Assembly: GCA_951406725.2 (NCBI GenBank)
Contig: OX597824.1
Location: forward strand, 76,942,001-77,006,000
DNA from: Octopus vulgaris
Lineage: Eukaryota
Reading direction: 5' to 3'
Length of the DNA stretch: 64,000 bases
A program made the translations under genes and the position numbers. The notes beneath the pieces were generated by a model. The model did no database searches. It saw only the letters and a program-made list of their open reading frames with translations, and had not been told where the DNA came from. The first letter of the stretch is position 1. Each line of letters starts with the position of its first letter. Below, piece after piece: positions 1 through 60,881 of this stretch.

Positions 1-153
1 ATTACCTTGCTTGAAAACAGGTGAAGGTTGGCAACAAGAAGGGTTTCCTGCCATAGAAAATCTGCTTCATAAACTTCATCCAATCCTATGCAAGAATGGA
101 GAACTGGAAGTTAAAACGATGATGATGATGACAATGATGATCAAGGGAATATA

Positions 154-4958: not shown

Positions 4959-4975
4959 GAATCTAGAACTGTAAA

Positions 4976-5011
<36 letters not shown>

Positions 5012-5028
5012 TTTACAGTTCTAGATTC
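4959..5028. repeat. 70-bp palindrome centred on (TA)n
   Basis: gaatctagaactgtaaattaat-(TA)n-attaatttacagttctagattc. Confidence 0.85.
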
Positions 5029-29448: not shown

Positions 29449-29754
29449 ATATAATTTAATATATGATTCAGAATAGTAATTGTAGATATTAATTTTGATT
29501 AAATTTAATCTTGTATATCTCTAGCATAGATAATGTCATTCAATGTGGAATGAGTTGCTTGAAGGTGGTTCTGTCTCTTAAACTTATCTATATATATATG
29601 TATATAATACAGCGAGAAATTCATTTTAGTACCGCTAAATTGAATTTTTCTCCCCTGAGGACTTGGAAATAACTTCCCTAATATTAATAATATATACATA
29701 TATATATGTATATATTTAAAAAAGGAGATGTGGAACACGAGTTGTGATATATAA

Positions 29755-29936
29755 AAAAGGAAATGAAGAAAATGCTGACAAAATAATTTAAGTAATTTAA
29801 GTAATTTAATTAGGTGAAAGTTCTTTTTACCGGTTGCGCATTTGTTATGTTTAAATGCGCAACCGGTAAAAAGAACTTTCACCTAATTAAATTACTTAAA
29901 TTACTTAAATTATTTTGTCAGCATTTTCTTCATTTC

Positions 29937-29941
<5 letters not shown>
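29755..29941. repeat. Perfect DNA foldback with 89-bp arms and 9-nt spacer
   Basis: 29755-29843 is the reverse complement of 29853-29941; the spacer is gttatgttt; it abuts (TA)n. Confidence 0.95.
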
Positions 29942-29983
<42 letters not shown>

Positions 29984-30055
29984 GAGTAAACACATAAATG
30001 TGAAACAAGGTGGTAAAAAAGAGTACTCAAATACCAGTGGTAAAGTAATATGCTC

Positions 30056-30172
30056 TATTTAAAGCAGCAGAAAATTCTACAAAACCTGTTACTCTGAGTT
30101 TCGTGTTGCCATTCATCGGCAACGCGAAACTCAGAGTAACAGGTTTTGTAGAAGTTTCTGCTGCTTTAAATA
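30056..30172. repeat. Near-perfect DNA foldback with 55-bp arms and 7-nt spacer
   Basis: 30056-30110 versus 30118-30172 with two mismatches; the spacer is attcatc; it lies between TA tracts. Confidence 0.9.
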
Positions 30173-30781
30173 AAGTATATATATATATTTAAAGCAATCT
30201 TTATATCCAACTGAATGTCAATGCTTTGTTGGGGTGTGTTGAATACTACAGCATTCCCCTTGAGAGGACCTCTCATATGGATACATGATGCATAAAAACA
30301 TACATAATACATATATCAATGACAGGCAAGAATCCTCTCCTATGGATGCCAGAACCGCCACACACACATACACACACACATTCTTTTATTTTTTAATTTG
30401 TTTCAGTCATTTGACTGCAGCCATACTAGACCACAACCTTAAGGGGGTTTACCTGAACAAATCGCACCCCACCCAAGATTTATTCTTTGTAAGCCTAGTA
30501 CTTATTCTATCAGTCTCTTTTGCTGAACCATTAAGTTACAGGGATGTAAAAACACCAATATCAGTCGAAGTCTAATGCAAGAAATGACAAAACCTATGAG
30601 GACAGTATAGCAGACTGATTTTGATAGAGGCCGAGATACTCTTATCCGCTTTCACTTTTTCCTCATCACAACAAGCCATCCTACTTCTCTTTCATTCGTC
30701 CTATTCCCATAGCCTTTCCATGATTCTCATGCATTGCACATGTGTTTTGTTTTATTCCTTCCAAGACCACAACTGCTGAAA

Positions 30782-60657: not shown

Positions 60658-60881
60658 CTGTTGTGTCTAGGGAGAGTCATTTTCTTTTTTGTGCCTTATA
60701 ATTTAAAACACTCACCGGTAAAATTTCCACTTATTTCTTATAGTCTTGGCTCTATTGAAAAGGTTGCAAGACGCAACAAAAATTTTAGGAAAATAAAAAT
60801 AAGAAATAAGTGGAAATTTTACCGGTGAGTGTGTTACATTATACGGCACAAAAAGAAAATGTCTCTCCCCAGACTCAACAG
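60658..60881. mobile_element. Foldback MITE with ~80-bp arms
   Basis: ctgttgtgtctagggagag...aaatttccacttatttctta versus taagaaataagtggaaattt...ctctccccagactcaacag. Confidence 0.75.

Follow-up and report, generated by a model that had tools for sequence, protein, structure and literature searches.

Adjacent hammerhead-bearing foldbacks in Octopus vulgaris as probable paired insertions of Penelope-like elements into one (TA)n tract

The window, meaning the whole 64,000-nt stretch of DNA that was analysed (C11:76,942,001-77,006,000), is (TA)n-rich animal DNA; coordinates given here are positions within it, and genome-wide counts refer to the 2.8-Gb genome. Two adjacent foldbacks, pointed out in an earlier sequence-only reading, were both recovered by an inverted-repeat search of the window, with arms at 29747-29843 and 29853-29949 (99% identity, 9-nt spacer) and at 30048-30110 and 30118-30180 (94% identity, 7-nt spacer). 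Stripped of its TA flank, the first consists of perfect 89-bp arms (29755-29843 and 29853-29941). The palindromic symmetry described for the pair does not extend to the whole elements, since each has an extra tail on one arm (29715-29754 and 29981-30052). Element 1 (29715-29941) is a head-to-head pair of pLTR fragments, by its motifs from a Neptune-type Penelope-like element (PLE) whose long copies lead to a frame with reverse transcriptase (RT) and GIY-YIG domains. Its tailed arm (29715-29849, minus strand) runs from 12 nt 5' of G12 to the end of the tail, which is ~40 nt long (29715-29754, minus strand) and confined to this arm. The short arm (29853-29941, plus strand) runs from the stem II loop to a fixed short 3' site, so that the two arm ends lie at -12 and -6 from G12. 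Between the arms are three T residues (29850-29852), which a comparison with family copies leaves as either untemplated or a continuation of the arm with one substitution. The 3' part of a minimal hammerhead relic of the U3-A8 type (29828-29849, minus strand) comprises stem II, GCAA in place of GAAA, the palindromic CCGG and UA; the first core box is cut off by the junction. The pairing GCATTT/AAATGC, taken for stem II in the sequence-only reading, is complementarity between the arms, and the natural stem II of the family is GCAT/ATGC with a 5-nt loop.

A (TA)n target tract of 38 nt (29942-29979), common to both insertions, separates the two elements; no target-site duplication is readable in it. 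Element 2 (29981-30175) is a further head-to-head pair of pLTR fragments, assigned by motifs to a Hydra-clade PLE. The tailed arm (29981-30119, minus strand) extends from C3 of the hammerhead to the end of a tail of ~70 nt (29981-30052, minus strand), again on one arm only. The short arm (30117-30175, plus strand) starts within stem II and overlaps the tailed arm by 3 nt (CGG). The arm ends are at -17 (C3) and -9, a geometry found again on other haplotypes. A type I minimal hammerhead (30085-30119, minus strand) shows a U4C core, a weak stem II, GAAA, a near-palindromic stem III, GUA and, of stem I, the 3' strand but not the 5' strand. The hammerhead motifs quoted earlier are present as written, and the observation that both centres fall on or beside stem II is correct for these two copies. 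Both are trimmed further than most members of their families. The units here measure 190-230 nt and have no ORF. An Rfam search of the window was dominated by microsatellite hits, with no hammerhead among the best 150 of 405, and gave sub-threshold microRNA matches for both hairpins. Elsewhere in the window, a third head-to-head foldback (60667-60872; arms at ~60686-60741 and ~60799-60854) contains in its loop a U3-A8-type hammerhead remnant with AAAA for GAAA and probably represents another PLE family. A perfect palindrome with 35-bp arms, a TA-tract centre and non-repetitive outer arms is located at 4959-5028.

Both elements belong to families far larger than chance would produce, with 1,879 exact 17-mer matches genome-wide for family 1 (2 for the reversed control) and 9,328 for family 2 (0 for the reversed control). 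The long copy of family 1 matches Pfam RVT_1 above the cut-off (E 2.9e-7) and GIY-YIG 0.6 bit below it (E 2e-4; 22.0 bits against 22.6). Its motifs are GLKF, DKG and YLDD; the linker is CX4CxxC, and the nuclease contains cysteines. The traits expected of Neptune are found, namely the CX2-5CxxC linker (CNRPNCGIC) and CCHH-type cysteines inside GIY-YIG (VYVLTCSGCNEHYIG). Nematis also carries a linker; by motifs, with Neptune and Nematis not separated by a tree, family 1 is a Neptune-type PLE. Among the 150 nuclease matches listed, sixty are identical to the query, several of them within 784-codon frames, which indicates a young family, and the matches listed by the nuclease-domain search were all 90-100% identical copies, with no more distant relatives. 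All three family 1 copies with a 5' pLTR (L320, 1436-5136; L323; L325) contain two overlapping frames of 472 and 784 codons, hinting at a frameshift or an intron.

The full frames of family 2 are 727 codons long, with RWK, DKT, a CxCX5C linker and a C-terminal nuclease without CCHH. In one of them (L342), CxxC and CxH are located near the C-terminus; the second cysteine of the linker is Phe in some copies. These features are those described for the Hydra clade in the accessible text of PMC8557442, and by motifs, without tree placement, family 2 is a Hydra-clade PLE. Naiad was considered and rejected because its nuclease is N-terminal. Pfam gave no match for a 507-aa piece of family 2, and BLASTP between the proteins of the two families gave a weak match (20% identity, E 2e-4). 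In two full-length Hydra frames, L342 (~1250-1330) and L344 (~1270-1300), the 5' end coincides with the short site or lies within the tail, and an inverted stretch of coding region adjoins it. Both families show the partial-tandem pLTRs, inverted 5'-truncated copy and optional tail of EN+ PLEs, and in full copies of both, the two 3' ends lie internal to the element, 5' of the first ATG, at TA-like sites. The earlier view of the foldbacks as inverted pieces of hammerhead-bearing retroelements therefore holds, the pieces being PLE pLTR fragments with minimal hammerhead motifs. They do not fit the definition of a MITE, as the ends are asymmetric and the long relatives encode RT rather than transposase. 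Nor are they non-LTR retrozymes, which the available text of 10.64898/2026.07.22.740005 describes as tandem non-coding units with a hammerhead in each; here, the copies are inverted pLTR fragments of coding elements.

Intact copies of family 2 carry a type I minimal hammerhead with a stem I of 4 bp, C(C/T)GA(T/C)GA, a GNAA-capped stem II, GAAA, a near-palindromic stem III and GUA, and have the core boxes, A15.1-U16.1, an NUH triplet and stems I-III. The T haplotypes have a stem II of 3 bp. The commonest haplotypes, and the window copy with them, have lost the closing pair 10.1-11.1 of stem II (A-A, A-G or A-C), and the window copy lacks the 5' strand of stem I. Across the two families, stem II is only 2-4 bp. 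The family 1 motif consists of TTGATAA, a GCAT/ATGC stem II with a 5-nt loop, GCAA, CCGG and TA. It has U3-A8 as a Watson-Crick 3-8 pair and a stem II; A13 of GAAA and a stable stem I are absent, stem I being 2 bp. A degenerate motif search gave 5,349 matches with the same layout, family 1 included, against 1 in the control. Sister motifs share this layout and GAAA and have stems II that differ in sequence yet pair (covary), so the family 1 motif is derived from a hammerhead. The sequence-only reading had named the lack of CUGANGA upstream of the central hairpin as evidence against itself; family 1 does literally lack it (TTGATAA), and this does not tell against a hammerhead, since a U3-A8 core is published for PLEs (PMC4209133). 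In the partial text of PMC3088659, U3-A8 is described as a natural covariation that is active. Other motif types with U3-A8 cores, GAAA, CCGG and different stems II number at least five (L289-L318), and many of them form pairs on opposite strands, spaced 57 nt to 3.7 kb.

The C13 of GCAA is fixed in family 1. Genome-wide, 18 copies have another base (16 T, 2 G), and none of these has A. The change is the family state, which settles the choice left earlier between a change older than the foldback and homogenisation between the arms in favour of the former. Changes at A13 are reported, in the part of PMC4075628 available, to cost 10-100-fold in activity. Given this cost and a stem I of 2 bp, the family 1 hammerhead, judged from its letters, is likely a weak or dead ribozyme. 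A literature search (few subscription journals, supplements excluded) found no account of A13C in PLE hammerheads.

The arrangement of the arms was examined in the first 100 matches listed for each 17-mer, on contig C1 (all of them for family 2, 97 for family 1), with ends mapped relative to G12 and copies retrieved by a query containing the foldback excluded from the breakpoint counts. The 100 arms of family 2 comprise 47 foldback units and 28 unpaired arms, two units of the same geometry at L112 being counted once. Exactly one arm is tailed in 45/47 units of family 2 and 31/32 of family 1 (together 76/79 against an expected 0.5, p = 1e-19), and locus L124 is also one-tailed. Among unpaired arms, 13/28 and 17/43 are tailed. 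The tail-less arm extends further 5' in 43 of the 76 one-tail units, so that each arm has sequence absent from the other, and the arms do not overlap at all in 4/47 units of family 2. Neither arm is then a plain copy of the other, and the simple snap-back copying proposed earlier is hard to fit to these 43 units. Similarity between arms is higher within units than across units in both families (0/10,000 permutations). Arm haplotypes are identical in 21/23 and 20/20 pairs (41/43), against 24% and 34% expected. The shared haplotypes fit a single template; they also fit fold-back copying or later conversion between the arms. The family 2 arms of L055 and L118 differ at two or more diagnostic sites, which makes these units possible two-parent insertions.

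At family 2 junctions without inserts, microhomology of at least 2 nt is present in 23/36, compared with 17-18% under the null. Inserts occur at 7/43 junctions of this family. One of the family 1 references is a foldback, which inflates the overlaps counted for that family (14/18). Inserts at L159, L293 and L205 repeat the arm's own end in short copies, which suggests that the telomerase-related RT re-primed several times.

Arm ends of family 1 were scored in a pool made of the 17-mer set and 25 further loci. Of its 123 distinct arms, 21 extend past the TATA box by over 60 nt, leaving 102. Ends at TATA+27..33, a window picked after inspection of the data, account for 57/102, with 8 in the 86 nt upstream of it and 3/102 in stem II (one of which is L167). 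Deletions in the spacer place the TATA box 54, 69, 87-91 or 104-109 nt before G12, and the peak of ends moves with it, to about -80, -63, -41 or -25 from G12 according to the spacer variant. The distance to the TATA box is thus constant, although deletions among the variants move the ribozyme by 55 nt. The peak also coincides with the word CAGAT in three variant classes. The haplotype with TATA at -54 lacks CAGAT and has ends at -27..-22 in 9/22 arms, compared with 1/80 of the others (Fisher p = 2e-6); these nine ends come from six loci, the spacer of trimmed arms is assigned without certainty, and, as each unit contributes two dependent arms, the p-values for the end peak, like those for microhomology, are overstated. 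RNA polymerase II starts ~30 nt after a TATA box. The limit 30 nt past the box matches this position, which points to run-off at the 5' end of the RNA, with a presumed start there, followed by trimming. A splice acceptor as the origin of the limit was rejected, as the ends include CAG and a deletion of CAG leaves the peak in place. Against a start set by TATA counts the TATA-less internal promoter of D. virilis Penelope (PMC2377424). A family 1 haplotype at L155, L185, L237, L239 and L243 is represented only by copies that begin at the usual 5' limit or downstream of it, and no TATA-bearing copy of it was found among the loci examined.

In family 2, the farther arm end falls at -35..-28 in 24/47 units, and the centre is in stem II in 5/47. 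Ends of the nearer arm show a mild excess in stem II (8/47 within its 10 nt against 2 in the 7-nt core), which may be compatible with some pausing there. Genome-wide, 1,406 foldbacks have a GAAA-GAAA gap of 40-70 nt and 269 a gap of 0-30 nt, the count covering these two ranges; the former centre just upstream, the latter on the core or stem II, no more than 15 nt from GAAA. Many of the stem II junctions in the family 2 listing sit on CG or GC dinucleotide palindromes. The upstream limit is an A at -34 in CCATTCT, 34 nt 5' of GAAA. CCATTCT is an initiator-like word. No conserved TATA box is present ~30 nt before the limit in family 2, and TATAGA is found 27 nt upstream in one haplotype only. 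The boundary also looks like a splice acceptor, a weaker reading of it. A short foldback of this family must centre within ~35 nt of GAAA, and the coincidence with stem II seen in the window follows from the place of the ribozyme just past the likely start.

We propose, with a probability of about 0.7, that the window contains two separate short PLE insertions in one (TA)n tract, each primed from both target ends at two internal sites of the RNA, copied towards the RNA 5' start and joined head to head. The target would be cut, and both (TA)n ends would prime reverse transcription on element RNA, usually from one source. Because the start sites resemble TATA, pairing with a (TA)n end is possible. 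Priming would occur at two fixed internal sites, one giving the tailed arm and the other the short arm, and both would yield target-primed cDNAs that run off at the 5' start of the RNA, which the upstream limit presumably marks. Variable trimming would precede end-joining of the two cDNAs. The hammerhead would then be at or near the foldback centre only because it is located just downstream of the likely start (34 nt in family 2, 25-80 nt in family 1).

The turn-around could instead have been made by the nucleic acid itself. The end of a cDNA or antisense template would fold back and be copied into a hairpin, and this would be integrated once GIY-YIG had cut it at two staggered positions, the tail site and the short site. 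Such self-priming with nuclease resolution explains the shared variants equally well, since the arms share haplotypes and rare variants, including GTAA in both arms of four foldbacks and several private changes common to both arms of L256. Junction microhomology also suits it, palindromes at inverted junctions were so read by Arkhipova et al. 2013 (PMC3846280), and the tail is taken as a resolution product in PMC8557442, as far as the accessible parts of both papers go. At the short site, the nuclease would however have to cut one strand or the other, even within a single-stranded loop in the four non-overlapping units, and there are apparent two-parent pairs (L055 and L118). In vitro, moreover, the tail has been mapped to two start sites of the RT, with extension of both target strands (partial text of PMC11167929). 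We consider self-priming unlikely, at roughly one chance in five. The idea that these elements become MITE-like palindromes through snap-back or template switching at the stem II hairpin of the hammerhead drew on the two window junctions, and the 269 family 2 foldbacks and the mild near-arm excess agree with it. Breakpoints cluster upstream, at a TATA-fixed site in family 1 and an initiator-like site in family 2; the 1,406 upstream foldbacks outnumber the 269, few family 1 ends reach stem II (3/102), the family 1 peak tracks the TATA box and not the ribozyme, and the stem is very short, with many of its junctions sitting on CG or GC palindromes. As the main route, it is largely refuted, and we regard it as very improbable.

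Multiplication of the foldbacks as whole non-autonomous units, either true MITEs or retro-copied palindromes, would account for the recurrence of identical junctions (a CTAG-centred type and the -17/-9 type of element 2) and for the TA target. One junction is carried by differing haplotypes (L112, L194, L032 and the window), as repeated formation would predict, junctions are otherwise very diverse, and the long copies lead to PLE frames; the probability of such units is slight indeed. An artefact of assembly or amplification might be suspected from the perfection of the 89-bp arms of element 1, the junction of which is not bridged by independent short-read contigs (four runs). It is contradicted by arms that end at two family-specific sites, by the 6% difference between the arms of element 2, by inverted family 2 joints in contigs of four runs from four studies (one of which may be the assembled sample) and by the right flank junction of element 2 in the same four runs. 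We give it next to no weight.

Twin priming of LINE-1 (Ostertag and Kazazian 2001) reportedly yields an inverted 5' segment primed from the second target end and joined by microhomology, with non-overlapping segments. Second-end priming and microhomology are alike; the arms here usually duplicate the same stretch. LINE-1 reportedly starts at poly(A), and the arms here start at two fixed internal sites. Closer parallels come from PLEs. Inverted 5'-truncated pLTR copies of EN+ PLEs share head-to-head pLTRs, junction palindromes, a tail at one end, (TA)n targets and TATA and initiator-like motifs in the pLTR; the accessible text describes tails of 30-40 nt, compared with ~40 and ~70 nt here, where the units are 190-230 nt without ORF and arm ends were counted and follow TATA+30 (PMC3846280; Craig et al. 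2021, PMC8557442). By motifs, we found no difference between family 2 and the Hydra clade in the available part of Craig et al. 2021 (PMC8557442), as motifs, hammerhead and (TA)n targets are the same. The minimal hammerheads of metazoan PLEs (Cervera and de la Pena 2014, PMC4209133, in part) are likewise type I in the pLTR, with palindromic stem III, U3-A8 and opposite-strand motif pairs ~100-700 bp apart; the fixed C13 and 2-bp stem I of family 1 and the missing 10.1-11.1 pair of the commonest family 2 haplotypes differ from them. The Poseidon element of Anolis carolinensis, studied in vitro (Frangieh et al. 2024, PMC11167929), also has two internal RT starts that define the tail. With the purified system, both target strands were cut and extended and ribozyme cleavage was not needed. 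In Poseidon, reverse transcription starts within the ORF, at sites without homology to the target, whereas the start sites here are before the first ATG and TATA-like; inverted products are not dealt with in the Poseidon study (PMC11167929, accessible part).

Neither twin priming in PLEs nor a 5' limit tied to a TATA box turned up in the literature search (few subscription journals, supplements excluded). Already in print are inverted pLTRs, tails on one side, palindromes at junctions, hammerhead pairs on opposite strands and U3-A8, and these families or motif variants may be listed in the supplements of PMC8557442 and PMC4209133; the boundary at TATA+30 is a modest new mechanistic clue. Overall, the sequence-only interpretation is partly supported. 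The locus at 29715-30175 itself is ordinary. A bolder view, which we hold at little better than even odds, is that PLEs routinely make a strong-stop-like cDNA: both target ends would prime at two fixed sites on a single RNA begun in the pLTR, the two copies would run off at its capped 5' end, 30 nt past TATA, and their joining would give MITE-like hairpins by the thousand, with centres that map the promoter. Separately, and at the same odds, a young open-frame family at ~1,900 matches would have spread with a crippled A13C hammerhead, as in vivo evidence that the ribozyme is dispensable. The mechanism of inverted and tailed PLE insertions is still called undefined in the text available of PMC8557442. 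Thousands of young foldbacks, with fixed 3' ends, one tail per unit, one arm source and a 5' limit that follows TATA, are a countable footprint of it. This footprint makes twin priming and fold-back copying directly testable against each other and allows transcription starts to be predicted with a precision of a few bases. Such hairpins will be mis-annotated as MITEs or microRNA precursors.
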